A stretch of DNA of 64,000 bases from a virus. The stretch lies in IMG/VR virus record IMGVR_UViG_3300008107_000157, positions 1 through 64,000 of that record, one strand, 5' to 3'. The notes under the pieces were generated by a model. The model saw nothing but the letters and a program-made list of their open reading frames with translations, did no database searches and was not told where the DNA came from. Below are positions 8,673 through 38,401 of this stretch, piece by piece. Made by a program: the position numbers and the translations under genes. Every line of letters begins with the position of its first letter. Positions within the stretch are counted from its first letter, which is position 1.

Positions 8673-9322
8673 TATTTTTTAACTTTGATTTTCCAATAAG
8701 TACCAAACCCAACGTATGGTGAGAATCCGCCGGTAGTACCATCAACAACTCTATTGTTTACACCTAAAGTAAATTGATATATTTTATCTTTCTTAGTTTT
8801 TAACATAATACCTGCTCCAACAGAAGAAACAACATCTGCTTTATTAAATCCACCATTTAAACCATAATAAACTTGGTTTCTAGCTGGTTCTTTAACAATA
8901 AGGGTTTCTTTAATAGTTCTTTGCTTAACGTTAGCATCGAATGTTCTACCTAAGATTTTGTTTTGTGAAATTGTATCAGTTACAGCCACAGTTCCCAATG
9001 AATCAGGCAATACTAATACATCTTTGTATAATACTTTTGAATAGTAATCCTTTAATAATGCCGCCGTATCTACAACTGCAGGAATTAATACTTCTTTTTC
9101 AACAATTGTTTCGTGATAGATATCATCACCTTTCTTAGTTACCACTTTTGTTTTGATTACATCTACTGTATCAATTTCGTGTTTGATAACTTCATATTTT
9201 TTACCCTCAATACGGATAGTTCTTCCACCTGGCATAACTCCACCTGGGTTAAACCATTGTAAAAGAATGTAAACTATTAATGCTGCAATAGCAATGTTTT
9301 TAAAATTCACTAATTTTTTCAT
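8672..9322 (-). CDS. Hypothetical membrane-anchored protein
   Basis: N-terminal hydrophobic helix IAIAALIVYILLQW; beta-rich C-terminus. Confidence 0.65.
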   Translation of the reverse strand: MKKLVNFKNIAIAALIVYILLQWFNPGGVMPGGRTIRIEGKKYEVIKHEIDTVDVIKTKVVTKKGDDIYHETIVEKEVLIPAVVDTAALLKDYYSKVLYKDVLVLPDSLGTVAVTDTISQNKILGRTFDANVKQRTIKETLIVKEPARNQVYYGLNGGFNKADVVSSVGAGIMLKTKKDKIYQFTLGVNNRVVDGTTGGFSPYVGFGTYWKIKVKK

Positions 9323-9326
9323 AATT

Positions 9327-9992
9327 CTATTTTTTTATAAGCTCTGAATGATTTAATTCACATAACTTTTCTTCTAATGCTGCTTTCCTCTCCAATAGAG
9401 CTTCAATTGCTTCGGTAGCACCATCTATATCTTTTTGCAAATCTGCTTTTACTTTATCCATATCAACATCGTAATTCCACTTCTCAATTCTTCCATCTTC
9501 ATTTACGAATTCCAATGTTTTAGAAAGTCCGGCTAACGCATCTTCGAATCTCATTTTTAAATCCCTAACATACGCTATTTGGTTTCTCGTTATTTTATAA
9601 TCAGCATAAAAAGGAAATGTTCCATCAATTCTTAATTGGGTTTCCATTTTTGCTAAACAATTTGAACAATATCCGGTTTTGCGAATTAATTTTTTGTCAG
9701 CGTGTCCATATTGTATAGTATTACAATCTTCTGCGGAGCAAGTATTTAATTTTTCTAAATATGCTCTTACATCATCTAATTGTGATACTGATATTTTATA
9801 TCCCTCTTTTTGTTCCCACTTCTTTCCCTCTTTATCAGTCCAAATTTCTCCTACTTCTTTTTTAGTTTCTACTTCACCTTCATAACCAAATGTAGTTTGA
9901 TTATCATCTCTACCAAAGACCGTATCTATAATTTTTTTACGGGTTGGGTGAATGTAGTTATTTTTTTCTTCAAAGCTTTTTCTCTTTGCCAT
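9327..9992 (-). CDS. Hypothetical protein with a Cys4 zinc-finger-like motif and coiled coil
   Basis: C-x4-C...C-x2-C; GEIWTD..GKKWEQKEG. Confidence 0.7.
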   Translation of the reverse strand: MAKRKSFEEKNNYIHPTRKKIIDTVFGRDDNQTTFGYEGEVETKKEVGEIWTDKEGKKWEQKEGYKISVSQLDDVRAYLEKLNTCSAEDCNTIQYGHADKKLIRKTGYCSNCLAKMETQLRIDGTFPFYADYKITRNQIAYVRDLKMRFEDALAGLSKTLEFVNEDGRIEKWNYDVDMDKVKADLQKDIDGATEAIEALLERKAALEEKLCELNHSELIKK

Positions 9993-10042
9993 AATATTTT
10001 TATTTATAACTTATTGTTTATATATACATATATATATATAAA

Positions 10043-13000
10043 TTATCTTCCAAACTTAAAAATTCCTAAAATTTGATTTAACGGAGCGAATGTGCCCGTT
10101 AATTTATAGGTATTTCCTTTGTAGAAAAATACTAATCCTTCATTTGGAACTAACTTTTCAAATCCACCAATAGCGTTTAATCTAGCTAATTCCTTTTCTA
10201 ATCTTTTTATTTGTGCTTCACTACCACCACTCTTAATATCTGATATAGATGATTCCAATGATGATTTAATCGATTGTAATGCTGCATCGGGTTGAGCGGT
10301 TAATACTGAACTCATAAATGAAAGAACTTCTGCACCAACTCCTAAAAAGATATCTTCAAATTTACGAAGGTTTCCTTTCATAATCTTATCCTTTGCATCT
10401 TTATCCACACCATCTGCCCATTTTCTGGCATCTTCATCGGCGACTGATTTGATTCCGAATGATTTATCATCAAATGCCCATCTTCTAGCTAATCCTTCTT
10501 TTTCTAATTGAGCTAAATTCTTTTTTGATTTGTTTACAAAGTTCATCCACCAAGCATAATGATAATCAGCTACACCATCTCTATCGGATAATCCAAATTC
10601 AGATTGTAGTTTGGATAACATACCATTAAACTTACCCTTTTGGGAACTTAGCTTCTCATCTTTTGGTAGTTTTGTAATTGGAGGTCCTTGTAGTGTATAT
10701 GTACTTTGTACGTGCTTATTAATATCTTTAATCATAGATGCTAATTTACTTTCAGCACCTTTTACACTACCTACTGCGTTTCCTTTTTCATCGTATTCAA
10801 CTACATTATGAAATACTAATAGATTTTGTCCATAAGGAATTACATTTGCATTTTGTGGATAGATTACTTCTAAATTACAAAACGCTGAACCATCTTTGAA
10901 TATACTCTGTCTTTCTTTTTCACTTAATCCACTAATTGCTGAATATAAATCTCTCATTGCGAAATTATATGCATCACTTAATGCACCTCTACCACCAAAC
11001 TTAGATGCCAATGCACTCATATCTAATGCACTTGCTCCACCATTTGATAAATGCCCTTTATTACGAGCTGCAATTAACTTACCATTTTTCCAACTGATTG
11101 CTAATGCCTGTCCATCGGTTTTTTCTCTAACAACTCCCAACTTACCATCTAAAGCGTTGTTGATAATCTTTTTTAAATCACCAAATGTAAGATTCATTGA
11201 AATATCAAATGGATGGTTCATATGTCCATACGCACCACCTTCACTTATAATTTCTTTTGATTCGTAAATGTGTCCGTTTCTTCTACCGAAATCTCTTAAA
11301 AGAATTCCTGCAGCCGCATTAGCTTCGTTTTCAACATCGGAGCCAGTAGCACCATCTTCATAACCACCAACAGTTCCAATTTCTCTTTGCTTTAGATGAA
11401 CTAATTCGTGTGCTAATGTTCTAAGGATATCCGGCATACTTCTATTTGAAACATACACAAATATTTCATCGGTATTTGGGTCATACCCACCATACGATTT
11501 AAATGTAGTTGCAAATTCGTTATCTTTTACTAATCTTATTTGAAATGGAAATTTATTTAAAGATAATCTATCCTTTGCGAATTTAATAAATTCACCTATG
11601 ATTTGAGCTTTACTTTTTTTTTGCTCTGGAGCTGGGATTTCTTCTTTTAATAATCCCAACTTAACAGACATATCAGTTACTTCTTCGTAATCAGTATCTC
11701 TTAAACTTCTTTCTACTTCTCTTCTATTTGCATTTGGGTCTGCACATACAGCTGCTCCAATTTTCTTTCTACCAAATGAACCTGCTTTGTCCCACATCTT
11801 CATAATGGCTTTATAGTGCCAATCACCTGCACCAACTTCGTTGAACGCAGATGGAACTTTAACTTTTACCCAACCACCATGTCTAAATAATCTAGCAGGT
11901 ATTGGTAGTGTAGAACCTATTGGTAATTTATTCTGATATTTCTTATCAATTCCAATTACTTTGGTAACAAATTCTCTATTCTTATTATCTGCTCCTACTA
12001 ATTCAACTTCTACATCAACAGGCTGTCCACCTATTTTAATTTTACCTTTAAAGAATCCTTTATTGATTTCATTTACAGTTCTAAATGTGGTTGCTTGCTT
12101 ACCATTAATTGTTGGCATTCCGTGGTCATCAGTTCCGATATCTTTAATGGTAACTTTTTTATTTTTAAATTTACCCATTAAAACTTCATCACCTTTATCA
12201 ACATCTACATTCACATCTTCTTTAACCAAATCACCAAATTCTTTACCTTGCTTATATGCTTTTATAGAATCCAATAATTGTTCATCTGACATTTCAAATG
12301 TTTCCATTTTTTCTGCCATCTTATTTATTACATTCTGAATATATTTTTCAGAATTCATTTCTTCTTCTTCGGTAACTAAATAACGAATTTCCAATAATCC
12401 CATAGTTGCTCCAGCTAATCCTGCTCCACCAAGTGCGGCCTGTGTACCACCCAATCCCATTGCTTCTAATGCAACGTGTTTAACCGCATCTTTACCCAAA
12501 TGTGCAGCAAATGCACCTACTCCGTGAGTGAATGAACCAACTATACCACTTCCGACAGCTTGACCAGCTGTGGAGGCTATTCCCGTAACACCACCGCCCG
12601 CTGCTAAACTTAAACCACCGCCCGCTGCTGCTTTACCAAGTGCTGCTAAACCACCACCAAGTGCAACACTACCAACTAAAAGAGCTAAATCTTTTACAAA
12701 ATGCTTCACATGGCCTATTTGCTCTTTTCTTTTTTCATCGGAGTATTCCCATTCGCCGGTTTCTTTATTTTTAGTAGAACCAACTTTTTGTCCGCTTGCT
12801 AATGCTTTAACAGCATGCCAACTGCCTTTAACCATATCGGATTTGTGTTGTAAAACATGTCCTATTGCTTTAACAACTTTAGTATCGGCTACTTTCTTTA
12901 AACCATCTTTCAAAGAGTTCATAAATTTAGAGCCCTGCTTATGTTCACCTTTTTCAATGAAATCCTGCTCTTCTTTACCTAATGATTTAATTTCATTATC

Positions 13001-14107
13001 TAATGTAGCTTTTAGTTCTTCTGCTTTTCTTTCTTTTGCTACTCTATCTTCTGCATCTGATTTTAATTCAGTACCACTTAATTTTTGTTCTGGTGGTGGG
13101 GCTTGTTTTTCTCCACCCTTTTCTCCACCATCGCCTTTTGGTTTATCATCAGCTTTACCTTGTTCGGTATCGCCTTTTTTAACGGGTTGGCCTGGCTGTG
13201 ATGGTTTATCATCTTTCTTTTTGGGTTCGTTTGCAGGTGCATCATCTGGTCCAACTAATTTAGCTGCTTGAATATGAGCTTCGTGGTCTTTTGGTAATCT
13301 TAATGCGTTTCTTACAGTAATTTTTTTCTTTTTACCATCTGCGGCAGTATATGTAAGTTCCTTATCCATATTTGGATTAGGTTCTTCTTCTAAGAAGTAT
13401 TCTTCAATAAAATTATCAGCTTCAAATACTAATTTTGCAATTTGTTCTGCAATTGGGTCATATACATACGAATCATCCGTAGTTGCTACTGAACGGATAT
13501 CATCATTTTTCTTTTGTATGTTTTGAACATCCTCTTTGGATGGATAACCTTTTATAAATCCTTCTTTAATCAATTTGTTAGTTATCATTTTATAAATTTC
13601 TTTATCGAATTTTGGATATGCTTTCAAAAATAGCTTTTCAGCATTATCCGAACTTAGCCAACTTCTTACATCCGTACCACTAATTGGATTTGAATCCGCT
13701 GGTATAATATAAGTATAACCAATCTCATCATAACCATATCCAGTCTTACCTTTGTATGGTTTAAAATATTTTCCTGCTAAACGAGTTGCATCTTTTTCAC
13801 CAACAGCCGCTATGTATGCGGTAGTTTTACCATCAAATTTAGAAAGTATTTCTTTTGGAGCGTATGGATTTGATACTTGTACAATTTTGTTTGGTGGGAT
13901 ACCAAACATTTTACCCATTATAACAACTTTTTCTTTAAAGTTAAATGGAGATTTACCAGAATCGGTTTTATCAGATGTACCAATATAAACATTACTAGCG
14001 CCAAATTTTGACACTAATTTTTGGTAGGCAGCGTAATGTCCTTTATGAAAAGGTTGAAAACGGCCCGAATATACTACTACGGTCTTTTTAACTTCTGGTT
14101 TATCCAC
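10043..14107 (-). CDS. Multidomain protein: HxGH nucleotidyltransferase, Gly/Ala hydrophobic segment, HExxH zincin and ligase-like nucleotidyltransferase
   Basis: GRFQPFHKGH...ISGTDVR; LRTLAHELVH...ENEANA; EKTDG...NLEV...VFH...NEGLVF...YKLTG. Confidence 0.8.
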   Translation of the reverse strand: MDKPEVKKTVVVYSGRFQPFHKGHYAAYQKLVSKFGASNVYIGTSDKTDSGKSPFNFKEKVVIMGKMFGIPPNKIVQVSNPYAPKEILSKFDGKTTAYIAAVGEKDATRLAGKYFKPYKGKTGYGYDEIGYTYIIPADSNPISGTDVRSWLSSDNAEKLFLKAYPKFDKEIYKMITNKLIKEGFIKGYPSKEDVQNIQKKNDDIRSVATTDDSYVYDPIAEQIAKLVFEADNFIEEYFLEEEPNPNMDKELTYTAADGKKKKITVRNALRLPKDHEAHIQAAKLVGPDDAPANEPKKKDDKPSQPGQPVKKGDTEQGKADDKPKGDGGEKGGEKQAPPPEQKLSGTELKSDAEDRVAKERKAEELKATLDNEIKSLGKEEQDFIEKGEHKQGSKFMNSLKDGLKKVADTKVVKAIGHVLQHKSDMVKGSWHAVKALASGQKVGSTKNKETGEWEYSDEKRKEQIGHVKHFVKDLALLVGSVALGGGLAALGKAAAGGGLSLAAGGGVTGIASTAGQAVGSGIVGSFTHGVGAFAAHLGKDAVKHVALEAMGLGGTQAALGGAGLAGATMGLLEIRYLVTEEEEMNSEKYIQNVINKMAEKMETFEMSDEQLLDSIKAYKQGKEFGDLVKEDVNVDVDKGDEVLMGKFKNKKVTIKDIGTDDHGMPTINGKQATTFRTVNEINKGFFKGKIKIGGQPVDVEVELVGADNKNREFVTKVIGIDKKYQNKLPIGSTLPIPARLFRHGGWVKVKVPSAFNEVGAGDWHYKAIMKMWDKAGSFGRKKIGAAVCADPNANRREVERSLRDTDYEEVTDMSVKLGLLKEEIPAPEQKKSKAQIIGEFIKFAKDRLSLNKFPFQIRLVKDNEFATTFKSYGGYDPNTDEIFVYVSNRSMPDILRTLAHELVHLKQREIGTVGGYEDGATGSDVENEANAAAGILLRDFGRRNGHIYESKEIISEGGAYGHMNHPFDISMNLTFGDLKKIINNALDGKLGVVREKTDGQALAISWKNGKLIAARNKGHLSNGGASALDMSALASKFGGRGALSDAYNFAMRDLYSAISGLSEKERQSIFKDGSAFCNLEVIYPQNANVIPYGQNLLVFHNVVEYDEKGNAVGSVKGAESKLASMIKDINKHVQSTYTLQGPPITKLPKDEKLSSQKGKFNGMLSKLQSEFGLSDRDGVADYHYAWWMNFVNKSKKNLAQLEKEGLARRWAFDDKSFGIKSVADEDARKWADGVDKDAKDKIMKGNLRKFEDIFLGVGAEVLSFMSSVLTAQPDAALQSIKSSLESSISDIKSGGSEAQIKRLEKELARLNAIGGFEKLVPNEGLVFFYKGNTYKLTGTFAPLNQILGIFKFGR

Positions 14108-14127
14108 AATACCCTATTATTTTGTAT

Positions 14128-14135
14128 ATAAATAT
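14128..14135 (-). promoter_or_regulatory. ATATTTAT putative late promoter
   Basis: About 20 nt upstream of the GTG at 14107. Confidence 0.55.
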
Positions 14136-14149
14136 CTTTTTATAAAAGA

Positions 14150-14275
14150 TTAGAAACTTTTATAAACAAATGGGTCTCTTTTTTTAAGTTCCTCTAACTT
14201 TTTTTTGAATCTTTTTTGCTTTTGTCTTTCTTCCCATAGTTTTACGAAAAAAGAAATGATAGGCCAATTTTTCAT
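14150..14275 (-). CDS. Small basic 41-aa protein not in the ORF track
   Basis: MKNWPIISFFVKLWEERQKQKRFKKKLEELKKRDPFVYKSF; the ATG is 4 nt after the upstream stop and the ORF fills the gap. Confidence 0.6.
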   Translation of the reverse strand: MKNWPIISFFVKLWEERQKQKRFKKKLEELKKRDPFVYKSF

Positions 14276-14279
14276 AATA

Positions 14280-14822
14280 TTAGTTTTTATAATACAATTC
14301 AGGATATTCTATTAAACAATGTACTCCGCCATTTTTGTAAGCGTTTATGTAAGCTGTTTCAATATCTTTCCAATCTTTTAAATTATGAAATTGTATATTT
14401 TTACACATTGATTTAAATTCTTCAAAATAATTTCCTTTATGTTGGTGACCAGGGTCTAATGGTTTATCAGAACCTTTTCCTAATCTAATTAAAATATTTG
14501 CTTTTTTACCCGTCATTAATTCATACTTATCGATATGATTTATTAACTGATTTGTCGCACATATTATAAAATCCCAACGAGGATAGAATGTTACAACAGT
14601 CTTTCCAGCCATAGCCATTCCCAAACTCATACCCATTTGAGTTTCTTCCATTACAGGCAATTCTACCATCTTTTCTTTTGGCACATCGCCCAATGTGGTA
14701 CTCATTGGATTTCCGGCATAAACTATTTGTTGTCCTATAAATATAACATCATCTTTTTCTCCTAAAACTTTCATTGAATTTGAAAGTGCATCTTTATATG
14801 GAGTGTATTCTGGTTGACTCAT
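14280..14822 (-). CDS. TPP-dependent E1-beta/transketolase pyrimidine-binding domain (short form)
   Basis: ELPVMEETQMGMSLGMAMAG, NQLINH and GHQH motifs; lacks the C-terminal domain. Confidence 0.85.
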   Translation of the reverse strand: MSQPEYTPYKDALSNSMKVLGEKDDVIFIGQQIVYAGNPMSTTLGDVPKEKMVELPVMEETQMGMSLGMAMAGKTVVTFYPRWDFIICATNQLINHIDKYELMTGKKANILIRLGKGSDKPLDPGHQHKGNYFEEFKSMCKNIQFHNLKDWKDIETAYINAYKNGGVHCLIEYPELYYKN

Positions 14823-15817
14823 TATGGTTTTGAATTTGGGTTAAATAAATGTTTATTTGTTTTGTACCAATTTAGTGCATCTTCCAATCCGCTTTTTAAA
14901 TCGTATTTAGGTTTCCATCCCAACTTCTTTAATCTTCTATTAGATAATAATCTGACTGGAATCATTGGTGCTTTATTACTTACATACTCAATTGGATTAT
15001 TATTACCTTCAATCTCTTTAATGGTATCCAAAACCTCATTAACAGTGTATCCACTTCCATAGCAAACATTGTAAATATCATATTTGTCAACATTCTCTGC
15101 AACACATATGAATCCACTAACCATATCATCAACGTGAATAATATCTCTTACTTCCGTTCCATCACCCCAAACTGGGATTGGATTTAAACCATCTGCTACT
15201 TTACGAATGTTTGCAGGAGTAACGTGGCATTTTTCAAAATCGTATTTATCATTTGGACCAAATGCGTTTGAAGGTCTAATAATTACACATTGCATTGGAT
15301 TGTGAATATGATTTGATAAAAAATCACAAAGGGTTTCACCATAACGTTTCATATTACCAACTGCTTTATAAGCCGGATAGATATTTGGAGTTTGTACTTC
15401 CATTTCTTCTACACAATATTCACTTCCTATATTTGGATAAACTGTATTTGATGATATAAACATAAATTTACGAACATTATTTTTCCAACATTGTTCCATT
15501 AAATTTACATTCATTTCTACATTTTGAGTAACATGTAATAGTGGGTTTACCTTCGTATCTAATGCATTTGTGGTATTTGCTGCACAATGGAACACAACAT
15601 CTACATCGGTTGATACCAATTTACAAAATTCAGCATCCGTTAAATCGCCTTTAAAATGTTCAAAATTACCTTCTACGTTTGGTATATCATTAGTTAAATT
15701 ACGTTTATGTGTAACTGCTCTAACATTTGTGTATCCATTTTCTATTAGCATTTTTAGTAAACGCGAACCAATGAATCCACTAGCTCCTGTAACTAATACC
15801 TTATCTATTTTCTTCAT
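14822..15817 (-). CDS. NDP-sugar epimerase/reductase (GDP-L-fucose synthase-like extended SDR)
   Basis: TGASGFIG, RPSNAFGPND, HVTPA and VWGDGTEVRD motifs. Confidence 0.85.
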   Translation of the reverse strand: MKKIDKVLVTGASGFIGSRLLKMLIENGYTNVRAVTHKRNLTNDIPNVEGNFEHFKGDLTDAEFCKLVSTDVDVVFHCAANTTNALDTKVNPLLHVTQNVEMNVNLMEQCWKNNVRKFMFISSNTVYPNIGSEYCVEEMEVQTPNIYPAYKAVGNMKRYGETLCDFLSNHIHNPMQCVIIRPSNAFGPNDKYDFEKCHVTPANIRKVADGLNPIPVWGDGTEVRDIIHVDDMVSGFICVAENVDKYDIYNVCYGSGYTVNEVLDTIKEIEGNNNPIEYVSNKAPMIPVRLLSNRRLKKLGWKPKYDLKSGLEDALNWYKTNKHLFNPNSKP

Positions 15818-16733
15818 AAAATTTATATGTTTTTTTGATTCCTTCTTTTATACCCATTTTTGGTAAAATATTATAATAAGTTTGATTTGTAATATCCATT
15901 TGTCTTCGTTTATCCCCGTTGGGTTTAGAAGTATCCCATTTTATTAAAATTGATTTTCCGCTGATTTCTACAATGGTTTCTATAATTTCTTTAATTGTAA
16001 CTTCTTCACCACAACCAAAATTTATAGTTATATGATAATTTCTTTCATATAATTCAATAATTGCATCTGCTACATCTCCTGCATAAACAAAATCTCTAAT
16101 AGGAGAACCATCGCCCCAAGCTTCTATTTGATTATATGCTTCAAACACCTTTTTAATAGTAGATGCTATAACTGTTCCATTACCACTAAAATCATCATAT
16201 TCACCAAATATATTTGCAGGTCTGATTATTGACCACTTACTATATCCGGTCTGAACTTTATAGGATTCCAATAGCAATTCTCCCATTCGTTTACTCCAAG
16301 CCGGAAACCAATCTGCTTCCGATGGTAAAGTTTTCCATACACTATCTTCTACAAATTTTTCCGCAGGTGCATATACTCCAACCGAACTTACAAATATTAA
16401 CCAAATATTATGTTTAGCACATTGATTAATAATTTCAGTATTAATTTTAAATGATGGGTATAGGAAATCAACTGGTTGATTTTTTGCCCTCATAGGAGAA
16501 CCTTTGACACCAAACGCATTTAATACAACATCCGGAGATTCATAAAAAAATAAATTCTTTACATTTTCTTCATTGGTTAAGTCCAATTCATAAAAAGTAA
16601 ATCTATCGGATATTGGCAAGTTATCGGAATATCTGATATCTGCGCCAATAACTTCGTATCCTTTTTCTAAACACTTTTTTACTAAATGGATTCCTACTAA
16701 TCCACTACATCCTGTTATTAAAACTTTTTTCAT
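15801..16733 (-). CDS. NDP-sugar epimerase/reductase (GDP-L-fucose synthase-like extended SDR)
   Basis: Likely start MKKVLITGCSGLVG at 16733; RPANIFGEYD and WGDGSPIRDF motifs. Confidence 0.85.
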   Translation of the reverse strand: MKKVLITGCSGLVGIHLVKKCLEKGYEVIGADIRYSDNLPISDRFTFYELDLTNEENVKNLFFYESPDVVLNAFGVKGSPMRAKNQPVDFLYPSFKINTEIINQCAKHNIWLIFVSSVGVYAPAEKFVEDSVWKTLPSEADWFPAWSKRMGELLLESYKVQTGYSKWSIIRPANIFGEYDDFSGNGTVIASTIKKVFEAYNQIEAWGDGSPIRDFVYAGDVADAIIELYERNYHITINFGCGEEVTIKEIIETIVEISGKSILIKWDTSKPNGDKRRQMDITNQTYYNILPKMGIKEGIKKTYKFYEENR

Positions 16734-16734
16734 A

Positions 16735-17364
16735 TTAAAATGCAATCCATTTGCCGCTTCCATAATGCGGATATTTTGATTTATAATCATACCAAATAAC
16801 ATCTTCAGGAACTTCTCTTTTCCCATTCCACGTTGCTTCAGTTGGTGTGTATGTAGATACTCCGTTATCTTCAACTACAAAATATAATGGTAAGTCAAAT
16901 CGTCTGGCATACTTATGAACTTCATAGAATATACCACTTTCAAAACTCATATCCCCAACAAATACCCACACCTTATCATCTCCTCCATCTTTCTTAATAG
17001 CGGATGCTACTCCCAATGCAATCGGTAGAGTTCCACCCACAATAGCTGATGCATAAAATCGATTATCGTGGTCACACATTGTAATTGATTTACCTTCTTT
17101 TATTACTTCGGTAGCATAGTCAGCTGATAACCCACTTAATACCCAATGATAGTGAGAACGCCAAGTTGAGAATACCCAATCGGTTTCTTTAATTCTTTTG
17201 AAAACTTCAATTAATTGTGATTCATTTCCATTTGATAAATGCACGGGTCCTCTTATTTTGCCGCCTTCCCAAATATCAACTATACTTTGTTCAAACGCTA
17301 TTAATTTTTCTACCGTCCAATCGATATCCCTAACAATTGGATATTGTTCTAAATTTTTTATCAT
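16735..17364 (-). CDS. TPP-dependent E1-alpha-like subunit (short form)
   Basis: GPVHLSNGNE, STWRSH, SAIVGG and the TPP motif GDM...VVEDN. Confidence 0.85.
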   Translation of the reverse strand: MIKNLEQYPIVRDIDWTVEKLIAFEQSIVDIWEGGKIRGPVHLSNGNESQLIEVFKRIKETDWVFSTWRSHYHWVLSGLSADYATEVIKEGKSITMCDHDNRFYASAIVGGTLPIALGVASAIKKDGGDDKVWVFVGDMSFESGIFYEVHKYARRFDLPLYFVVEDNGVSTYTPTEATWNGKREVPEDVIWYDYKSKYPHYGSGKWIAF

Positions 17365-17906
17365 CTATCTCTTTTTTGTAATATTGGAGAATCTGTTGGC
17401 CATTCTATTTGAAATTCCGGGTCATTCCACTTAACTACGCCTTGTGCATTTTCTTCAACGAAATCTCCTTCATAAAATAAATTATAATGAAATACACAAT
17501 CCGTTAATGCATAGTGTCCATTTGCAAACCCAGGTGGAACTAAAATTTGGTCTCTTGATTTTTCAGTAAGTAGATATGAGTTCCAATCGCCATATGTTGG
17601 TGACTCTTGTCTAACGTCCAACACTACTAAAAATATATCACCTACTAATGCTTGAACCATTTTCCAAGTCTTATTATCCCAATGCAATCCTCTTAATACA
17701 CCTTTATATGATTTTGAAAATCTACCATGTACTTTTAAATCTCCATGCATAAAATTATGAACGGGGTGTTCTTCAGAATGATACGTTGTCCATATCTCAC
17801 CTCTATACTCTCTATATACTGATGGTGAAAATATTGGAACATCGTTTCCAAATGGTTTTAGAAATGATACATCTATATCATTCCATTTTTTGTCTTTATA
17901 ACTCAT
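17361..17906 (-). CDS. rmlC: dTDP-4-dehydrorhamnose 3,5-epimerase family protein
   Basis: SKSYKGVLRGLH, VVLDVRQESPTYG, VPPGFANG and WNDPEFQIEWP motifs. Confidence 0.9.
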   Translation of the reverse strand: MSYKDKKWNDIDVSFLKPFGNDVPIFSPSVYREYRGEIWTTYHSEEHPVHNFMHGDLKVHGRFSKSYKGVLRGLHWDNKTWKMVQALVGDIFLVVLDVRQESPTYGDWNSYLLTEKSRDQILVPPGFANGHYALTDCVFHYNLFYEGDFVEENAQGVVKWNDPEFQIEWPTDSPILQKRDR

Positions 17907-17907
17907 A

Positions 17908-18873
17908 TTATGTTCTATTTGCGTATCCTAAAGGAAATCCGTTTCTAAATTCTGCTCCCATTTTAGGAACTATCATTTGATATCCCTGAATTAATTGTTT
18001 AATACCTTTATCCAATCCCCAATGTGGCACCCACCCAGTCGCTTCTATTTTAGCGTTTGATACGATATAATCTCTTTTATCGGGGTCCTCATAATAATCG
18101 TTATATGATACCGCAAAATCCTTTACATGAGATTGTATCTTTTCCAACAATTCTTGCTTTGATAAATTGGCAGAGCTTAACCCAACATTGAAAACTTCAC
18201 CTTTATATTGTTCATAGTTTTCTAACATAAAAAGAAATGCCGATGCTACATCTTCTATGTGGATAAAATTTCTTTTAAAGTTCTTTTCAAACACAACGAT
18301 GTATTTATCCGTAATTGCTTTATAAACAAAATCGTTTACTAATAAATCGGTTCTCATACGAGATGATACACCAAATACAGTTGCTAATCTAAATGTAATC
18401 GCTGATGTATTTGCTCTAAGGAAATTTTCTGCTGCACATTTGGTATTACCATAAACCGATATAGGATTTAATGGCGATTCTTCGGTACATTCGGTTTGCC
18501 CTACACCAATACCATACCCACTATTAGTATTTGGGTACAATATTTTTTTATCTTTTGCAAATCTTACAATATTAAAGATTTGTTTAAAATTTATTTCATT
18601 TGCCAATTGAGGGTCAGCCGCACATGCGGGGAATCCTACTATTGCCGCCAATGGTATTATAACATCTGCTTCTATACAAAGTTCTTCTAATAATGTTTCA
18701 TTACGAACATCTCCATAGATAAATTTAAAATTTGAATTAGATGTATATTGAAGTAGCGATGTTTGGTTAAACAATAACTTATCCAATACAACTACTTCAT
18801 ATCCGGCTTTCAACATCTTGTCTACAATAACCGAACCCAAATAACCGGCGCCGCCTGTGATTAATATTTTCAT
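17908..18873 (-). CDS. NAD-dependent sugar epimerase/dehydratase
   Basis: TGGAGYLG, LAAIVG, catalytic YGNTK (YxxxK) and RLATVFG. Confidence 0.88.
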   Translation of the reverse strand: MKILITGGAGYLGSVIVDKMLKAGYEVVVLDKLLFNQTSLLQYTSNSNFKFIYGDVRNETLLEELCIEADVIIPLAAIVGFPACAADPQLANEINFKQIFNIVRFAKDKKILYPNTNSGYGIGVGQTECTEESPLNPISVYGNTKCAAENFLRANTSAITFRLATVFGVSSRMRTDLLVNDFVYKAITDKYIVVFEKNFKRNFIHIEDVASAFLFMLENYEQYKGEVFNVGLSSANLSKQELLEKIQSHVKDFAVSYNDYYEDPDKRDYIVSNAKIEATGWVPHWGLDKGIKQLIQGYQMIVPKMGAEFRNGFPLGYANRT

Positions 18874-19229
18874 AATTTTATTAATTCCCTTTTAGCTGTT
18901 TCTAAATCCATAGCCTTATCATCTATAAGTAAATCATAATGCAATTTACCCATAAATAATCCGTGATGTTTTACACCCCATTCTTTTAAATGATTTAAAG
19001 TTAACTCATAAAGTTGTTCATATATAACTTTAATATCACCATCAAATGTTTTCATACCTCTTGCGGTATAGATATATATGGTATTTCCACCATCATATAA
19101 TTTATTGGAAATATCAATCATTTCTTGTATTGGTTTACAATGGTGGTATTTATCACCGCCTAAATGTTCTACATCTTTAGGTCTGTAACAAAGTGTATCA
19201 TCTAAATCAAAAGCAAATATTTTTTCCAT
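18870..19229 (-). CDS. Minimal HAD-superfamily phosphatase (capsule-biosynthesis type)
   Basis: FDLDDTL, YTARG and GK...IDDKA motifs. Confidence 0.85.
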   Translation of the reverse strand: MEKIFAFDLDDTLCYRPKDVEHLGGDKYHHCKPIQEMIDISNKLYDGGNTIYIYTARGMKTFDGDIKVIYEQLYELTLNHLKEWGVKHHGLFMGKLHYDLLIDDKAMDLETAKRELIKL

Positions 19230-20170
19230 TATGGTAAATGATTTAATTTATTTTTAATATTTTCTTTAACTATATTATCTATTTTTGGCATATTGTACAA
19301 ATCAAAACAATAATGGCCACACACTTTAATTAGTAATTTTTTAGATAAAGTAGTATTTCCATCCGGCACCCATCTCTGCCATTTCATAGATTTTAAACAT
19401 ATTTCATAAAATTCATCAATTTGTGTTTTTGTCATATGTTCTAAATAGGTAAGTGTTTCTATTTGAGCAATTTCAGGACCAATATTAATTGAATCCAACC
19501 CATTTTGAAATCGTATTTTTAATTCCGGTGTACTTAAATAATCTCCATTATGCTCTTTTGTTTTTTTACCAAATGATTTTACTAAAAGAGATTGTGTTTT
19601 TAATTTTTCTAAATTAAATATTCCCGTATTTTTTCCACCAACTAAATCCAATCCAACTCCTGATTGAATTACAATGTATATGATACTATCAAATTCATCT
19701 TTTGTCAAATTGGTTATTAAATATTGTAGAATATTGATTAGTTCGTTATCCGAAAATGGTTTTATAGCTTCTTCTGTAAGGATTTCAAATTTAGTATTTG
19801 GATTTATATGATGTATATATTTTATAGCATCTACTGTTTCTTTTATCCCTAACAAATGATTTTGAGTATATTTCCAAGGGTCTAAATGTATTACATCAAA
19901 GTAGTTTGCGTCGTGTGTATATGTCTCATACCCAAAATCTTCCACACTTCCTTGTAATGGGCCGGAATGGTCACGTTCTAATATTATATTAGGATTTATA
20001 GATTTGACGTATTCGTAAAAACTTTTAGTATTCCATCCATTTACATATCCACTATTAAAATCAATTTGTCTGCGTGTTGGTAACAATCCAAATGCTGAAT
20101 TGTTTAATTCCAAAACGGAATCAACAATGTTTTTAGACATTGGGCATATGTAATATTTAGGTAGCATCAT
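19229..20170 (-). CDS. GatZ/KbaZ-like TIM-barrel sugar-phosphate epimerase/aldolase-like protein
   Basis: RRQID..GY, RDHSGP, IHLDP, KEHNGDY and INIGPE motifs. Confidence 0.6.
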   Translation of the reverse strand: MMLPKYYICPMSKNIVDSVLELNNSAFGLLPTRRQIDFNSGYVNGWNTKSFYEYVKSINPNIILERDHSGPLQGSVEDFGYETYTHDANYFDVIHLDPWKYTQNHLLGIKETVDAIKYIHHINPNTKFEILTEEAIKPFSDNELINILQYLITNLTKDEFDSIIYIVIQSGVGLDLVGGKNTGIFNLEKLKTQSLLVKSFGKKTKEHNGDYLSTPELKIRFQNGLDSINIGPEIAQIETLTYLEHMTKTQIDEFYEICLKSMKWQRWVPDGNTTLSKKLLIKVCGHYCFDLYNMPKIDNIVKENIKNKLNHLP

Positions 20171-20798
20171 ATTCTATTCCTGTATATAATTTGAATTGAT
20201 GCTTTGCTTGATATTCTGCAACAATTTTTCCATAATGAGTATGTGGTCTTAAATCTATTATTTTATTGTGTGTAGATTCAAATTCAATTGGAGTTGCGTT
20301 TATAAAAATCTCATCTACAACATTAAACATTGTTTTGGTATCCTCCCTTTTAATTATCTTATATTCAATATTCATTTTTTTACAAGCATATTGAATTGCT
20401 TTACTAAATCCCCCATTACCAATTATGTTTATATTCTTTTCTATGTTAATATACGAAAAAAAATCAATAATACCAAAAAAATCGGTATTAAATCCGGTCA
20501 ATTCTCCATTTATATTTACAACAGTATTAACCGCTCCTATTTTATGAGAAATTTCATCCAAATGATTTAGATATGGTATTACATTTATTTTATGTGGCAT
20601 ACTTAACGCAAATCCACTAAATCCCAAATGCTTTACAGAAGTAATTGTATCTTTTATGTTATCCGAATAAAAGGATTTATATATTGCATTTATATTATGC
20701 TTTTCAAATGCGGCATTAAAAAATAAACATCCGTTGTTGCCAGGTGTTTCTGAAAATGAACCAAAGATTTTTGTATCTTTATTTATTTGCAAACCCAT
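20157..20798 (-). CDS. Shikimate dehydrogenase-like oxidoreductase
   Basis: SMPHK, IGAVNTV, GFNTD, GNGG, NATP and QAKHQF.LYTG motifs. Confidence 0.8.
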   Translation of the reverse strand: MGLQINKDTKIFGSFSETPGNNGCLFFNAAFEKHNINAIYKSFYSDNIKDTITSVKHLGFSGFALSMPHKINVIPYLNHLDEISHKIGAVNTVVNINGELTGFNTDFFGIIDFFSYINIEKNINIIGNGGFSKAIQYACKKMNIEYKIIKREDTKTMFNVVDEIFINATPIEFESTHNKIIDLRPHTHYGKIVAEYQAKHQFKLYTGIEYDAT

Positions 20799-22689
20799 AA
20801 AGTATTTCTATTGATTTGAACCACAACATTTTTGAAAACTTCTCATCATGCAATGGCGACATATTTAAAAATATTAAGCCAGTTATTAGTTTTACTTTAT
20901 CTAAGTCAAACCCAACTTTAATGACCCAATCTTCAAATTCTTTTTTAAATAAATTTAGATTATCCGAAATATCGTATGAATATCTAATCGAATATTCCCC
21001 TTCAACATAATCTATATTAGATTCATCCTTCATCATATTATATGGTATTATAGAACCACCATATAATTTAGCTAAATCATAGTATATATCGCCCGATTCA
21101 GTATAGCCTCCAAACGATTCTCTCCAATCAATATATGTAAATTTATCATTTTTTGAATTATAAATAATATTATCAAATTGAAGGTCTCCGTGAAACACTT
21201 TATAAAAAGTATTACTATTAAACTTACTAAAATTTATATTACCAAAAAAAGAATCATATGATGGGTAATCTACTCCATTTATGTTATGTGGATGTTTAAA
21301 ATACTTATCCCCATTTTTACTTATAAATTTATTAAGTCTTTGATAAGTTTTATCTTTGTAAAATTTATGAATGTGCTCCAATGAATTATTAGAAATATTT
21401 TGTAAATTATTTTCTAATGTTTTTAAAAATTTTTTAAACAATTCTAAATTATCAATGGTGTACAACGTATTACCATCTTCCCAATTATAATACATAAACT
21501 TTGAAACACATCCAAAGTTAGATGGAATTTGATTTTGAATTAATTGAGCTCGTTTAATTCTATTTTCTAATATGTTTGTATCAGGTGTAAATTTAATAAA
21601 TAAATTACCTTCTTTGTACGTTATTTCATTATTATCTTTTTGTAATGATAATGGAACATCGTTAAAATATTGCTTTGTTTTATTTAAATCATCTAAGTTG
21701 CCGGTATCTAACCACTTTAGTTTTTTAATTTTAAATGTTGGATATTCTAATGGCGATTCAAATGCTGATACCAATTCTCCATTAATAGTTTTTGATTCCA
21801 ACTGCTTCCAAAATACATTATAATCCCATATTCCCGCCAATCCAATAAATGCCAAATCAAAACCGCTTTCGCTTTTATTAGAATAATTTATAATATTATC
21901 ACCATCAGATAATATTGTAGAATATTTTTCAGGATATGATGTTGGTTGAACTCCTAACCAATTACCATCTAAATGTGGCATTGGTGAATCGATTAGACAA
22001 TCGCAAGTTGTTATATAAAAAGGTCTTTGCAAATATTCCTTACACTTTAATGTAGAATATCCAGGACCAGAACCTTGTCCATCTATATTGTCTATTTCGA
22101 CAAATGTAAATTTATGATTAGGAAACACTAATTTACAATATTCTTTAACCAATTCACCTTTGTATCCAATTGCTACTATAAATTCATAATCTTTTGGAAA
22201 TTTATCAATTATGTGAGATATAATTGCACGGTTGTTAATTGGTAAAAGTGCTTTGTTAATTTCTTTTGTAAGAGTTTCCAATCGTGTTCCTAATCCAGCT
22301 GCTAATATTAATACAGCAGGAGTCTGATGTTCTCCTTCTATTTTACCATCTCCTCTAGCGAATTCATCATTGATTCTGATTACATCATCTACTTCGGGTG
22401 TAGAAACTTCCTGAAGTATTATATCGGTAAGTGCTATAACTCTGTGCTTTTTTGGTGGAGTTACATTAAAGTAATCTCCTGCTTTCATAATTTTCTTTTC
22501 AACAACTCCCTCATCGTTTTCTAACCATACCTCTGCTTCACCGGAAATTATATAATTGGTTTCTTTTTTGAAATTATGATATTGATAAGATGTTTTGTAT
22601 CCAGCATTTATGTATATGCGTTTATAACAATATCTATCATTGAGTTCTAACCACTCTTCTTTGCCCCAAGGCTTTGTAACTGTTTTCAT
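20779..22689 (-). CDS. Cupin, NTP-transferase and aminoglycoside/choline kinase-like triple fusion
   Basis: KPWG..SYQYH..K.ET cupin; LAAGLGTRL..NKALLP nucleotidyltransferase; HGDLQFDNI..IDWR..YDLAKL kinase. Confidence 0.85.
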   Translation of the reverse strand: MKTVTKPWGKEEWLELNDRYCYKRIYINAGYKTSYQYHNFKKETNYIISGEAEVWLENDEGVVEKKIMKAGDYFNVTPPKKHRVIALTDIILQEVSTPEVDDVIRINDEFARGDGKIEGEHQTPAVLILAAGLGTRLETLTKEINKALLPINNRAIISHIIDKFPKDYEFIVAIGYKGELVKEYCKLVFPNHKFTFVEIDNIDGQGSGPGYSTLKCKEYLQRPFYITTCDCLIDSPMPHLDGNWLGVQPTSYPEKYSTILSDGDNIINYSNKSESGFDLAFIGLAGIWDYNVFWKQLESKTINGELVSAFESPLEYPTFKIKKLKWLDTGNLDDLNKTKQYFNDVPLSLQKDNNEITYKEGNLFIKFTPDTNILENRIKRAQLIQNQIPSNFGCVSKFMYYNWEDGNTLYTIDNLELFKKFLKTLENNLQNISNNSLEHIHKFYKDKTYQRLNKFISKNGDKYFKHPHNINGVDYPSYDSFFGNINFSKFNSNTFYKVFHGDLQFDNIIYNSKNDKFTYIDWRESFGGYTESGDIYYDLAKLYGGSIIPYNMMKDESNIDYVEGEYSIRYSYDISDNLNLFKKEFEDWVIKVGFDLDKVKLITGLIFLNMSPLHDEKFSKMLWFKSIEILYGFANK

Positions 22690-22709
22690 ATTAATATGTT
22701 CTATTAATT

Positions 22710-22717
22710 ATAAATAT
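22710..22717 (-). promoter_or_regulatory. ATATTTAT putative late promoter heading the nucleotide-sugar sub-operon
   Basis: Sits in the 29-nt gap upstream of the 22689 start. Confidence 0.55.
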
Positions 22718-22718
22718 A

Positions 22719-23480
22719 CTAAACGGGTAAATTAAAAAAATACCTTCTCCAATTGTTTTCGTAATCTTCTATTGTTCTATTTTGTTCATAAAGATTACTC
22801 CATCGGTATGGGATACCTTCATTTCCACAAAACAATCGTTTAAACGATATATTATTTTTGATTAAATATTCCGCCATTTCCGTTTGCCAATCTACTTCAT
22901 TCGTTCCCAATCTTTCGAAGTAATAATTTACAGCAACATCAAAAACGTTTGATGTAGCAATCCAAAAAACATCTTCAAATTTATTTAAACTTATTACATT
23001 TCCAAAATCCATAGTATATATACTATTTCCGTAATCGGAATTTAATATTATTTCCAATTCATCTTTTAATTTATATGATGGGTTATAAATAAAATCAGGC
23101 CTTATTTTTATTATAAAATGATAATCTAAATTATTTTCTTTTTGATATTCTTTTCTTAGTTTATCACATTCATATAAAGAATAAAATAAAGGTTCTATTT
23201 TAATATATTGTTTTTGCCAGTCAATAAAATCATCAACAATCATTTTTTTAGGATTCCATATTTTTGAAAATTCTTCAAACAAAGAATTAGGCTCTTTAAA
23301 TGGAACACCTGCTATACTTAAATCCGATGATGTTTCACTTCTAACATCCCAAGTATGAACAAATACATCGCATTGGTCTATTAAATCTCCTATAAAATTT
23401 TTAATATTTTTATAGGTTAATAACCCTGTTCTTATTTGTCCACTAAAACAAATCGCTATTTTTATATTTTCAATTTTCAT
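22719..23480 (-). CDS. Putative glycosyltransferase, SGQxR family paralog
   Basis: IAICFSGQIR, FVHTW, KIRPD and EDVF motifs. Confidence 0.6.
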   Translation of the reverse strand: MKIENIKIAICFSGQIRTGLLTYKNIKNFIGDLIDQCDVFVHTWDVRSETSSDLSIAGVPFKEPNSLFEEFSKIWNPKKMIVDDFIDWQKQYIKIEPLFYSLYECDKLRKEYQKENNLDYHFIIKIRPDFIYNPSYKLKDELEIILNSDYGNSIYTMDFGNVISLNKFEDVFWIATSNVFDVAVNYYFERLGTNEVDWQTEMAEYLIKNNISFKRLFCGNEGIPYRWSNLYEQNRTIEDYENNWRRYFFNLPV

Positions 23481-24378
23481 TTAAATAAACTTTGTTGTCC
23501 ATATCATCAAAATCAACACCAACCTCATTAGGTAAGTCATATACATAAAAATTACCATTAGGGTTTAATTTATAATAGCTATAATAATATCCATCAGCTT
23601 CTGATATTTTTTCTATACACTCTTTACTAACCTCTTCCTTTGCTAAATGTTTATATGCATCTCTTAACACAAATGGTTCATCAAACGCATGTATTGGATT
23701 TATGTTTTTAAAAAATGTGTGCATATATTGAGTATATCCATATCCATCATTTTTACAATACGCTGGATTTATTGATTTATCATATTTCATTTTGTCTATA
23801 AAAAATGTTGAATATGAGTCCATTGTTTTAGAATTTGAAATAAAAAAAATATCGTTTGCGCTTATTGTATTTAAAATACTAGTCCAGTCTGAGCTATATC
23901 TGAAATGAGTAGCCATTGTATTATCACTCTTACTTAAAATATGCTCAATATGCTCATCAAACGTATCAACATTTTTAAACATAGAATCCGGTCTTATTTT
24001 TATAACAATATCATATTTAAAATTATGTTTTCTTTCATACCATCTTTTTAAAATAATACTTTTATAAAAAGAATACCAAAGCTCTAATCCACTACCAAAT
24101 CCTTTTTCTACATATTTTTTTAAATAATCCAAATGCGATTCTATTTTTATTGCTTTTGGATTGTAAGTTTGTTTTAAAAATTCTACTTCATCCGATGTAA
24201 TAAATCTAGTACGATGTGGATAAATGTTTGTGCCATTGAAATTTTTGTAAGATGTGTTATCCCAAGTATGAATAAAAAAATCAATCTCATGCTTTTTGCT
24301 TGAGAAAAATCGTTTTAGATTAGGTGCACATTCGTTTGCTGTCCTAATCTGCCCACTAAAACATACTGCTACTTTCAT
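23470..24378 (-). CDS. Putative glycosyltransferase, SGQxR family paralog
   Basis: VAVCFSGQIR, FIHTW, KIRPD and NDIF motifs. Confidence 0.6.
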   Translation of the reverse strand: MKVAVCFSGQIRTANECAPNLKRFFSSKKHEIDFFIHTWDNTSYKNFNGTNIYPHRTRFITSDEVEFLKQTYNPKAIKIESHLDYLKKYVEKGFGSGLELWYSFYKSIILKRWYERKHNFKYDIVIKIRPDSMFKNVDTFDEHIEHILSKSDNTMATHFRYSSDWTSILNTISANDIFFISNSKTMDSYSTFFIDKMKYDKSINPAYCKNDGYGYTQYMHTFFKNINPIHAFDEPFVLRDAYKHLAKEEVSKECIEKISEADGYYYSYYKLNPNGNFYVYDLPNEVGVDFDDMDNKVYLNEN

Positions 24379-25187: not shown

Positions 25188-25189
25188 TT

Positions 25190-38068: not shown

Positions 38069-38076
38069 ATTTTAAT

Positions 38077-38397: not shown

Positions 38398-38401
38398 ATT
38401 A

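Follow-up and report, generated by a model that had tools for sequence, protein, structure and literature searches.

Six genes in the sugar island of a T4-like phage

The subject of this analysis is a run of six genes in a 64-kb stretch of viral DNA (hereafter the window), which is part of the 89-kb IMG/VR record IMGVR_UViG_3300008107_000157 (completeness estimate, 41%). The genes lie end to end on the minus strand at positions 14280-18873, with junctions ranging from a 17-nt overlap to a 4-nt gap, and two of them encode alpha and beta proteins related to the E1 component of pyruvate dehydrogenase (PDH). We give a probability of roughly 55% to the reading that these two proteins, as predicted from sequence, form a thiamine diphosphate (ThDP)-dependent carboligase that adds a two-carbon (C2) unit to a GDP-4-keto-heptose. 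In order of transcription, the operon encodes an extended short-chain dehydrogenase/reductase (SDR) of 321 amino acids (aa) with an intact Tyr-x3-Lys motif (17908-18873; matched to PDB 6vo6/6vo8), a 181-aa RmlC-fold 3,5-epimerase (17361-17906; Pfam PF00908, 116.5 bits), the 209-aa alpha protein with a PP domain (16735-17364), two GDP-fucose-synthase-like extended SDRs of 309 aa ('P-type', 15801-16730; Pfam Epimerase, 136 bits) and 331 aa ('V-type', 14822-15817; Pfam Epimerase, 158 bits), and the 180-aa beta protein, which consists of a Pyr domain only (14280-14822). The stop codon of the RmlC-like gene overlaps the start of alpha by 4 nt. An earlier sequence-only reading of this DNA had the gene coordinates and sizes right, and just one start, that of the 309-aa SDR, was adjusted. 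The mechanical open reading frame (ORF) for that gene starts at a TTG at 16874, inside alpha, and the ATG at 16730 was adopted because the Pfam Epimerase match then starts at residue 3.

The carrier is a freshwater T4-like phage. Flavobacterium phage 'immuto' and Microcystis phage Mel-JY01 have large terminases 53% identical to the one encoded here, genes for a T4-type portal protein and prohead protease were found in the window, and an ORF pass over the window placed all 57 ORFs of at least 75 aa on the minus strand. The operon belongs to a 28-kb sugar island (~14.2-42.5 kb) that holds many glycosyltransferase genes and is flanked by terminase/portal genes and by a 1300-aa tail-fibre-like gene. 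The island resembles the hypervariable 'host recognition cluster' of pelagimyophages. That cluster and the 'LPS gene' islands of cyanomyophages are likewise hypervariable and rich in glycosyltransferases, lie among structural and tail-fibre genes, and carry rfaE-type genes (PMC7029224). The terms 'thiamine', 'transketolase' and 'pyruvate dehydrogenase' do not occur in the main text of that article on the pelagimyophage cluster.

The stretch was found nearly unchanged in 18 DNA runs labelled as freshwater or lake metagenomes, with 12 studies accounting for the 20 runs in which it is present. Two freshwater metatranscriptome runs yielded short contigs, mostly 90-95% alike, over parts of the genes for beta, the 331-aa SDR, the epimerase and the 321-aa SDR, along with one identical 168-nt piece at 15783-15950. 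Since these contigs represent relatives and DNA carry-over is possible, they do not show transcription, and the parts that they leave uncovered carry no meaning. A DNA-level search with the region gave zero matches in the phage collection. A scan of 13900-27500 returned 82 promoter-like sites against a mean of 98 in shuffled sequence and three terminator-like sites against a mean of 4.1, and is uninformative because both counts fall below the shuffle means.

The alpha and beta proteins compared with canonical E1

Alpha matches PF00676 (E1_dh) with 49.5 bits against a cut-off of 22, its residues 23-178 lying on profile positions 8-172 of 300, and it covers positions 2-199 of PHROG 34187 (E 7e-49). 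In hhalign, residues 21-183 of alpha align to residues 34-207 of the ~340 residues of canonical E1-alpha. Beta matches PF02779 (Transket_pyr) with 27.0 bits, which is exactly the cut-off of 27. This borderline call was accepted because it is backed by PHROG 34187 (positions 237-399 of 405, E 4e-21), by the hhalign alignment of residues 8-178 to canonical E1-beta residues 5-178 of 329 (probability 97.7%), and by homologues in which alpha and beta are fused. Thus, from the extents of the profile-profile alignments, alpha and beta are E1-type proteins cut to the PP and Pyr cofactor domains, with the last third of alpha and the whole E2-docking C-terminal domain of beta missing. In canonical E1 of the PDH, BCKDH and AcoA-AcoB kinds, the alpha subunit measures ~320-370 aa, the beta subunit (~330 aa) carries a C-terminal domain, and E2 and E3 serve as partners; the PP and Pyr folds and motifs are common to canonical E1 and to the mini-E1 pair described here. 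The statement in the sequence-only reading that both proteins are shorter than PDH E1 holds, at 209 and 180 aa compared with canonical sizes of ~340 and ~330 aa.

On the aligned residues, the cofactor machinery of the predicted alpha/beta enzyme is intact. Among 47 diverse homologues of alpha, Gly137 and Asn167 of the metal/diphosphate motif (Gly137-Asp138-Met139...Asn167) are invariant, Asp138 is present in at least 90%, and His42, Arg69 and His71 are conserved. The same homologues share a family-specific C-terminal motif with an invariant His200. An equivalence between this motif ('Y..Y....PH.G.G') and the E1-alpha active-site motif 'YRYRGHS' was considered and dropped, as hhalign gave it a probability of 0.04% and aligned the motif elsewhere. 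In beta, for which invariant columns were judged among 19 phage copies, Glu60 aligns to the invariant cofactor-activating Glu of nine canonical E1-beta sequences and His126 aligns to their invariant active-site His, with the motif 'GHQHK' placing His126 and His128 at that site.

Could the pair simply be a true auxiliary PDH or acetoin dehydrogenase E1 that borrows the E2 and E3 of the host and redirects central carbon metabolism during infection? Public automatic names of close homologues read 'pyruvate dehydrogenase E1 component alpha subunit', and the best NCBIfam model for alpha is indeed that of PDH E1 alpha (TIGR03182), but its score of 81.3 bits is far under the equivalog cut-off of 393.85, as is that of beta with NF006667 (31.9 bits against 321). 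The E1-beta domain that binds E2 is among the missing parts, and neither PF00198 (E2) nor PF02780 (Transketolase_C) has a match across the 89-kb, ~41% complete record. Pfam scans of 56 window ORFs (15 + 41) revealed no 2-oxoacid_dh, lipoyl or Pyr_redox domain, in agreement with the earlier observation that the window holds no E2 or E3, although a host could conceivably supply both. A phylogenetic comparison with PDH E1, suggested by the sequence-only reading, was made as a quick maximum-likelihood (ML) tree with Bacteroidota PDH-type E1-alpha sequences and one AcoA as outgroups and a root for drawing only. In this tree, a branch that has an SH-aLRT support of 100% sets 77 mini-alpha rows apart from 11 rows of canonical E1-alpha, and the phage clade of the window fell in a 95%-supported set with three chromosomal mini-alpha copies from Pelagibacterales. 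Moreover, all of the contexts examined are sugar-nucleotide clusters. The contention that an auxiliary PDH annotation would be wrong is well supported by these findings, and the opposite view, to which we give very little credence, is already close to refuted.

Alpha and beta occur as a single fused chain of ~400 aa in cyanophages P-TIM68 and S-SM2, where it is annotated as 'transketolase central region-containing protein'; further examples come from metagenomic representatives and from PHROG 34187, a group of listed unknown function. A model of the complex of the separate proteins scored 0.76 against 0.01 for the best control, with contacts agreeing 100% between runs and a partner pLDDT of at least 89; 116 of 157 solved complexes attain this mark, as do 2 of 215 mismatched pairs. 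Residues 58-74 of beta, the loop around Glu60, touch residues 113-126 and 145-152 of alpha in this model. Because E1 heterotetramers are among the solved structures, the result may show likeness to E1 and is not proof of binding. From the fusions and the complex model, we infer that alpha and beta assemble into one enzyme. An AlphaFold model of a fused homologue (pLDDT 78.8, pTM 0.83) has two alpha/beta domains joined by a poorly defined linker, and a Foldseek search with its second half returned E1-beta chains at a root-mean-square deviation of 2.5-3.3 Å.

The family is large, with ~3,900 proteins in a clustered database matching alpha at E ≤1e-5 and 103 clusters at 50% identity matching it at E ≤1e-30. 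Two of the mini-alpha homologues (P0135 and P0161) are interrupted by inteins with LAGLIDADG and Hint domains. In another homologue, the 552-aa P0194, an APH-family kinase is fused to the N-terminus of mini alpha; relatives of P0194 were not found in viral contigs, and no BLASTP relation was detected between its kinase part and a 636-aa protein of the window described below. A fused mini-E1 that is 53% identical to homologue P0218 lies on the 6.9-kb IMG/VR contig GVMAG-S-1045057-15, the name of which marks a giant-virus metagenome-assembled genome (MAG). A search among Bacteroidota gave matches at E ≤1e-25 in 197 of 401 genomes. Among the 150 matches listed, all except one on a phage-like contig were judged to be canonical E1-alpha, and not the mini form, because they lie in long open frames (330-654 aa) and stop at model position ~165-192. 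A record labelled Acinetobacter phage MD-2021a (CAKLQF020000010.1) carries acoA, acoB, E2, E3 and butanediol dehydrogenase genes flanked by trpB, aroC and lipA, and by its gene content looks like bacterial DNA with an ordinary acetoin dehydrogenase operon.

Keto-sugar enzymes and Tyr-less reductases around the pair

The genes upstream of alpha point to heptose chemistry. The 321-aa SDR matches PDB 6vo6/6vo8 over residues 2-307 with an E value of 3e-105 (355 bits), the next match being at 4e-25, and by sequence reading it does not have the Asp-Glu pair of 4,6-dehydratases. We take 6vo6 to be the Campylobacter jejuni GDP-heptose C4-dehydrogenase Cj1427. The best PDB matches of the RmlC-like protein are 8db5, 8dco, 7m14 and 8dcl (E 3e-37 to 2e-36), which are GDP-D-glycero-4-keto-D-lyxo-heptose 3- and 3,5-epimerases, whereas dTDP-type RmlC reaches only 3e-25. 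Because of these two sets of matches, the pair appears to sit in a Campylobacter-type GDP-heptose module. The capsular GDP-heptose pathway of C. jejuni employs the C4-dehydrogenase Cj1427, Cj1430-type epimerases and Cj1428-type C4-reductases (PMC10680097), and the operon likewise has a dehydrogenase-like gene, an epimerase-like gene and two Fcl-like SDR genes. Since the neighbours are homologous to this set, the likely acceptor is a GDP-4-keto-heptose and not a 6-deoxyhexose. The word 'thiamine' does not occur in the available text of the article on the C. jejuni pathway. The Cj1427-type enzyme takes 2-oxoglutarate (2OG) as a co-substrate (PMC10680097), and a role for the pair in 2OG-dependent cofactor recycling of this enzyme was rejected for want of a mechanistic link.

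The two remaining SDRs of the operon resemble GDP-fucose synthase, both with scores far under the NCBIfam GDP-L-fucose synthase cut-off of 500 bits (141.7 for the 331-aa protein and 137 for the 309-aa protein). When aligned with E. coli GDP-fucose synthase (PDB 1bsv), the catalytic Tyr136 is replaced by Val153 in the 331-aa SDR (motif 'AVGNMK'), which retains the Ser of the triad and the Lys corresponding to Lys140. In the 309-aa SDR, aligned with 1bsv and 7ll6, Tyr136 is replaced by Pro143 (motif 'FPAWSK') and the Lys is kept as Lys147. The sequence-only reading had noted the missing Tyr in both proteins, and the alignments agree; the loss, moreover, is conserved. For the 331-aa SDR, 53 of 65 distinct phage homologues have Val at the position and 12 have Tyr; for the 309-aa SDR, 50 of 59 distinct homologues have Pro, eight have Ala and one has Tyr. 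Lys and Ser are kept in both families. Both Tyr-less motifs are found in Pelagibacterales chromosomal copies as well. The 321-aa SDR, in contrast, keeps 'YGNTK', and its Tyr and Lys are retained in 58 of 59 distinct phage homologues. Because the Tyr-less state is conserved, the two proteins represent maintained SDR lineages and not decaying genes. The further suggestion of altered chemistry stands only to the extent that the Tyr loss is conserved. Judged by sequence, the Tyr-less SDRs would suit a substrate in which the carbonyl to be reduced lies elsewhere than at ring C4. Three homologues of the V-type SDR (P0371, P0375 and P0389, 535-543 aa; ~70% identical) carry a 2OG-Fe(II) oxygenase domain fused to the SDR. 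In the pathway proposed for avilamycin, the non-haem iron enzyme AviO2 accompanies the E1-type pair AviB1/AviB2 (PMC4425429).

The gene neighbourhood was compared over 86 loci, namely 80 viral loci (the best 80 of 184 alpha relatives from viral contigs), the window, two MAG contigs, two cyanophages and a 735-kb phage, some of the loci being cut by contig ends. ORF clustering found alpha in 84 of these loci, SDRs in 84 (232 copies), a family of unknown 460-aa proteins in 80, the RmlC-like protein in 74 and beta in 67. In the phage family, the Cj1427-like SDR and RmlC-like genes precede alpha, the latter directly in 53 of 83 loci. Beta may lie up to ~10 kb downstream of alpha, separated from it by a variable cassette with genes for radical-SAM proteins, GT7-lectin glycosyltransferases, methyltransferases, 2OG oxygenases, a carbamoyltransferase and DegT aminotransferases. 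SDRs, radical-SAM proteins, 2OG oxygenases and DegT aminotransferases recur in the mini-E1 islands. Counts of close alpha-beta spacing disagree between methods: by tblastn, 11 of the 80 viral loci have a beta that starts no more than ~25 nt from where alpha ends, while ORF clustering found only three loci without an intervening ORF. In the 735-kb phage (LR756501.1, 4968-10889), a radical-SAM/SPASM gene lies between beta and alpha, and genes for two TylC3-type sugar C-methyltransferases, which also act on keto sugars, flank beta and alpha.

Two further settings extend the pattern. In the fused family, a zinc-dependent alcohol dehydrogenase gene lies directly upstream in 59 of 62 loci, with HldE-type heptose kinase and adenylyltransferase domains, a small HAD protein, a small cupin and an Fcl-like SDR encoded downstream. 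A search of the order Pelagibacterales found mini alpha in 8 of 301 genomes. One Pelagibacterales contig of 1,297,477 bases has, in order, genes for a Gmd-type 4,6-dehydratase, alpha, beta, an unknown protein, a YerE/ALS-type ThDP enzyme and a split transketolase, so that the pair is followed by two ThDP types tied to keto-sugar branching; near this operon are genes for a B12-radical-SAM protein, GT2 transferases, an ABC transporter, and a trio of P-type SDR, RmlC and V-type SDR. A Pelagibacterales operon with these three ThDP types in a row (mini-E1, YerE/ALS-type and split transketolase) after a Gmd-type dehydratase lies at 8869-15264 of locus L174 (G411:C1). A second Pelagibacterales genome has the order GT4, SIS isomerase, alpha, beta, GHMP kinase, DegT, B12-radical-SAM, RmlC-like and Cj1427-like. 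As judged from predicted functions, a keto-sugar-forming gene is upstream of the mini-E1 genes in three independent settings, and directly so in the fused family and on the Pelagibacterales contig.

How the window's phage would obtain an activated heptose can be suggested from the genes at 18870-22689 (minus strand), which were assigned with Pfam, NCBIfam and PHROG. GmhA, HddA and HddC were not found in the record, nor was an SIS_2 domain. The candidates in this stretch are a 119-aa HAD-type phosphatase, a 313-aa protein without a family or PDB match (19229-20170), an adjacent 213-aa truncated shikimate-dehydrogenase-like protein made up of a substrate domain and a partial NAD domain (20157-20798), and a 636-aa protein of three parts (20779-22689), all on the minus strand. 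The last comprises a PMI-type cupin (residues 2-108), a nucleotidyltransferase (~125-280) and a C-terminal kinase-like part with the motif 'HGDLQFDN'; its PHROG matches are of unknown function, and conversion from isomerisation to nucleoside diphosphate (NDP)-sugar within one chain is possible. The HAD phosphatase and the 636-aa protein could together supply the sugar nucleotide in place of GmhA, HddA and HddC. Apart from the window, this cassette turned up in just two of the 80 related viral loci (L023 and L031), and a cyanophage protein encoded near the fused enzyme shares 38-40% identity with the HAD phosphatase.

Other genes of the window merit mention. Directly downstream of beta, a 1354-aa protein (10043-14107, minus strand) has an N-terminal cytidylyltransferase-like domain (a weak Pfam match and PHROG 395), long low-complexity stretches rich in Gly, Ala and Lys, and a zincin-like 'HELVH' motif. 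Farther into the island, three paralogous glycosyltransferases (35294-39856, minus strand) combine a GT7 (beta-4-galactosyltransferase-like) domain with a concanavalin/laminin-G lectin domain, and beside them is a gene for a 472-aa radical-SAM protein (33871-35289). Outside the island, a single 1048-aa chain joins an Mre11-type phosphoesterase to a Rad50/SMC-type ATPase (49313-52459, minus strand), with a T7 endonuclease-I family gene nearby (53892-54308, minus strand).

A proposed C2 branch on a GDP-heptose and known sugar-branching systems

What reaction might such a pair catalyze among these neighbours? We read alpha and beta as a carboligase because keto-sugar makers lie upstream in three settings, because YerE/ALS-type and transketolase genes are neighbours in one of them, and because there is precedent among E1-type enzymes. 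In the proposed pathway, alpha and beta would constitute a minimal heteromeric ThDP enzyme with PP and Pyr domains only, which would decarboxylate a 2-oxo acid, most likely pyruvate. The Cj1427-like dehydrogenase would make the GDP-linked 4-keto-heptose, the RmlC-like protein would epimerise it, and the acyl-anion equivalent would be added to the carbonyl of the GDP-4-keto-heptose to give a sugar that bears an acetyl-type branch together with a tertiary alcohol. The Tyr-less SDRs may then work on this sugar, one possibility being that they reduce the ketone of the branch instead of one at ring C4, and the glycosyltransferases of the island would use the finished sugar. The sequence-only reading had proposed a C2 branch on an NDP-4-keto sugar, and this remains the best reading, strengthened by the upstream keto-sugar makers and by the YerE and transketolase neighbours, while still being an interpretation; the 6-deoxyhexose acceptor that it named gives way to the likely GDP-4-keto-heptose.

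A broader and distinctly more tentative proposal is that a carbon-branched heptose (a branched nonose) is produced by aquatic T4-like phages, and by the Pelagibacterales that are probably their hosts, by means of the smallest heteromeric 2-oxo-acid-dependent ThDP carboligase seen, with two families of Tyr-less SDRs retooled for the branch, and that the product decorates virions or alters the host surface. We know of no described example of a carbon-branched heptose or branched nonose, although no search was directed at one. The literature, searched without a specific focus on phages, yielded no account of a truncated E1 pair, be it from a phage or from a heptose pathway.

Several points weigh against a carboligase acting on GDP-4-keto-heptose. 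All that is proposed about donor, acceptor and branch position is deduced from neighbouring genes, and what the SDRs would do is likewise a proposal. The known E1-type branching proteins Pau11 and Pau12 are full length, at 325 and 345 aa (PMC4425429), compared by description and not by sequence with the 209 and 180 aa found here. When the window was compared with the cyanophage clusters (E 1e-8, at least 50% query coverage), only alpha, beta and the small HAD protein were matched, at 38-45% identity, apart from matches of 21-25% for two SDRs and one unknown protein in S-SM2. In a Foldseek search with the whole model of the fused homologue, DXS and transketolase ranked above E1 chains, the best TM-score being 0.65 to transketolase; such a ranking is expected because those enzymes are single chains that span both domains. 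Finally, the pair is sometimes found among sugar-phosphate enzymes: between genes for an SIS isomerase (GmhA-like) and a GHMP kinase (HddA-like) in one Pelagibacterales genome, with an HldE-type kinase in the fused family, and joined to an APH-type kinase in P0194.

The last three points lead to the main rival, which we consider unlikely, namely that the enzyme is a carboligase or lyase that acts at a stage preceding activation of the sugar, or on the side chain of the heptose, in the manner of DXS or transketolase, and builds or alters the seven-carbon skeleton, with a kinase, phosphatase and nucleotidyltransferase then activating the sugar. It would agree with the near-constant company of the fused family, in whose 62 loci the HldE-type kinase occurs 61 times, the adenylyltransferase 39 times, and the HAD and cupin proteins 35 times each. 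It would also suit the fact that alpha, beta and the HAD protein are the best-matched genes common to the window and the cyanophages, and that no SIS isomerase was found in the window's record. Most relatives of the window, however, keep alpha and beta without a kinase or nucleotidyltransferase within 10 kb, the cassette occurring in just 2 of the 80 other loci. The sequence of alpha is E1-like, and it scores only ~20 bits with competing models (DXP_synthase_N, 20.6 bits in Pfam; transketolase, 22.9 bits, and dxs, 19 bits, in NCBIfam), with a weak TPP_enzyme_C overlap of 24.5 bits. Action on a sugar phosphate would also leave the upstream dehydrogenase or dehydratase without a role, and since sedoheptulose 7-phosphate is a common metabolite, a dedicated synthase for it seems unnecessary.

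Another explanation, less probable again, is that the pair is a plain 2-oxo-acid decarboxylase that carries out no ligation and either shortens a sugar-derived ulosonic acid to an aldose or makes an aldehyde or acyl unit for the island. All of the retained residues (the cofactor Glu, the His and the diphosphate motif) would be needed equally by a decarboxylase, and minimal two-chain ThDP decarboxylases exist in another superfamily, sulfopyruvate decarboxylase being one. The nearby truncated shikimate-dehydrogenase-like gene and the 2OG co-substrate of the Cj1427-type enzyme could be accommodated as well. In the window, however, Pfam scans revealed no gene for making an ulosonic acid, and the recurrent partners of the pair are keto-sugar makers and ThDP enzymes of sugar-branching type. 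E1-type enzymes that occur without E2 in sugar clusters have so far been carboligases (PMC12247030).

If the proposed C2 branching of a GDP-heptose is true, then E1-type sugar branching would extend beyond actinomycete antibiotics to the glycans on the surfaces of aquatic bacteria that are very abundant, and of their phages. The pair itself would represent a ThDP carboligase pared to its core, with ~390 residues, possibly useful for making tertiary alcohols, and widespread 'pyruvate dehydrogenase E1' and 'transketolase' labels, which give the genes the look of auxiliary genes of central metabolism in viromes, would need to be corrected. Should the carbon-branched heptose itself be real, it would decorate virions or change the host surface among freshwater and marine microbes that rank with the most abundant. 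In their own right, the conserved Tyr-less SDRs pose a testable problem for SDR enzymology.

The closest known systems are the E1-type pairs without E2 that are an accepted class of C2-branching enzymes found in ~120 gene clusters (PMC12247030). Pairs of this alphaKADH2 type install C2 branches on keto sugars at C3 or C4, and KbDH-alpha/beta couples pyruvate to ketones in vitro (PMC12247030). Like the pair described here, AviB1/AviB2, Pau11/Pau12, the aldgamycin pair and KbDH are encoded without E2 or E3 beside a keto-sugar maker and among sugar-nucleotide genes. With pyruvate as the donor, the alphaKADH2 pairs form a tertiary alcohol and an acetyl branch, which is afterwards reduced, methylated, oxidised or transaminated (PMC12247030, PMC4425429, PMC4753412). 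These pairs belong to actinomycete secondary metabolism and take 6-deoxy sugars or pentoses as substrates, some proposals placing the step after glycosyl transfer, whereas the mini-E1 pair is set in phage and Pelagibacterales surface-glycan islands with enzymes of GDP-heptose type, and this context is what is new here.

Transketolase and DXS differ from the mini-E1 pair in having a C-terminal domain and a PP domain of the Transketolase_N or DXS type; the pair lacks both, its PP domain being of the E1_dh type. The C4-reductase of the C. jejuni type has a Ser-Tyr-Lys triad, of which the reductase-like SDRs of the phage lack the Tyr. The enzymes YerE, ErwE and MygE of the yersiniose, erwiniose and gastriose pathways transfer a unit from a 2-oxo acid onto an NDP-4-keto sugar, after which the branch is reduced in an NAD(P)H-dependent manner by YerF or ErwF (PMC9306805), and this is the type of reaction proposed here. 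YerE-type enzymes are single chains of ~560 aa with TPP_enzyme_N, M and C domains and belong to another superfamily, the N and M domains being unmatched in the window proteins. E1 itself is capable of carboligation in E. coli (PMC7696235), and in the Pelagibacterales operon a YerE/ALS-type gene stands two genes after the mini-E1 pair.

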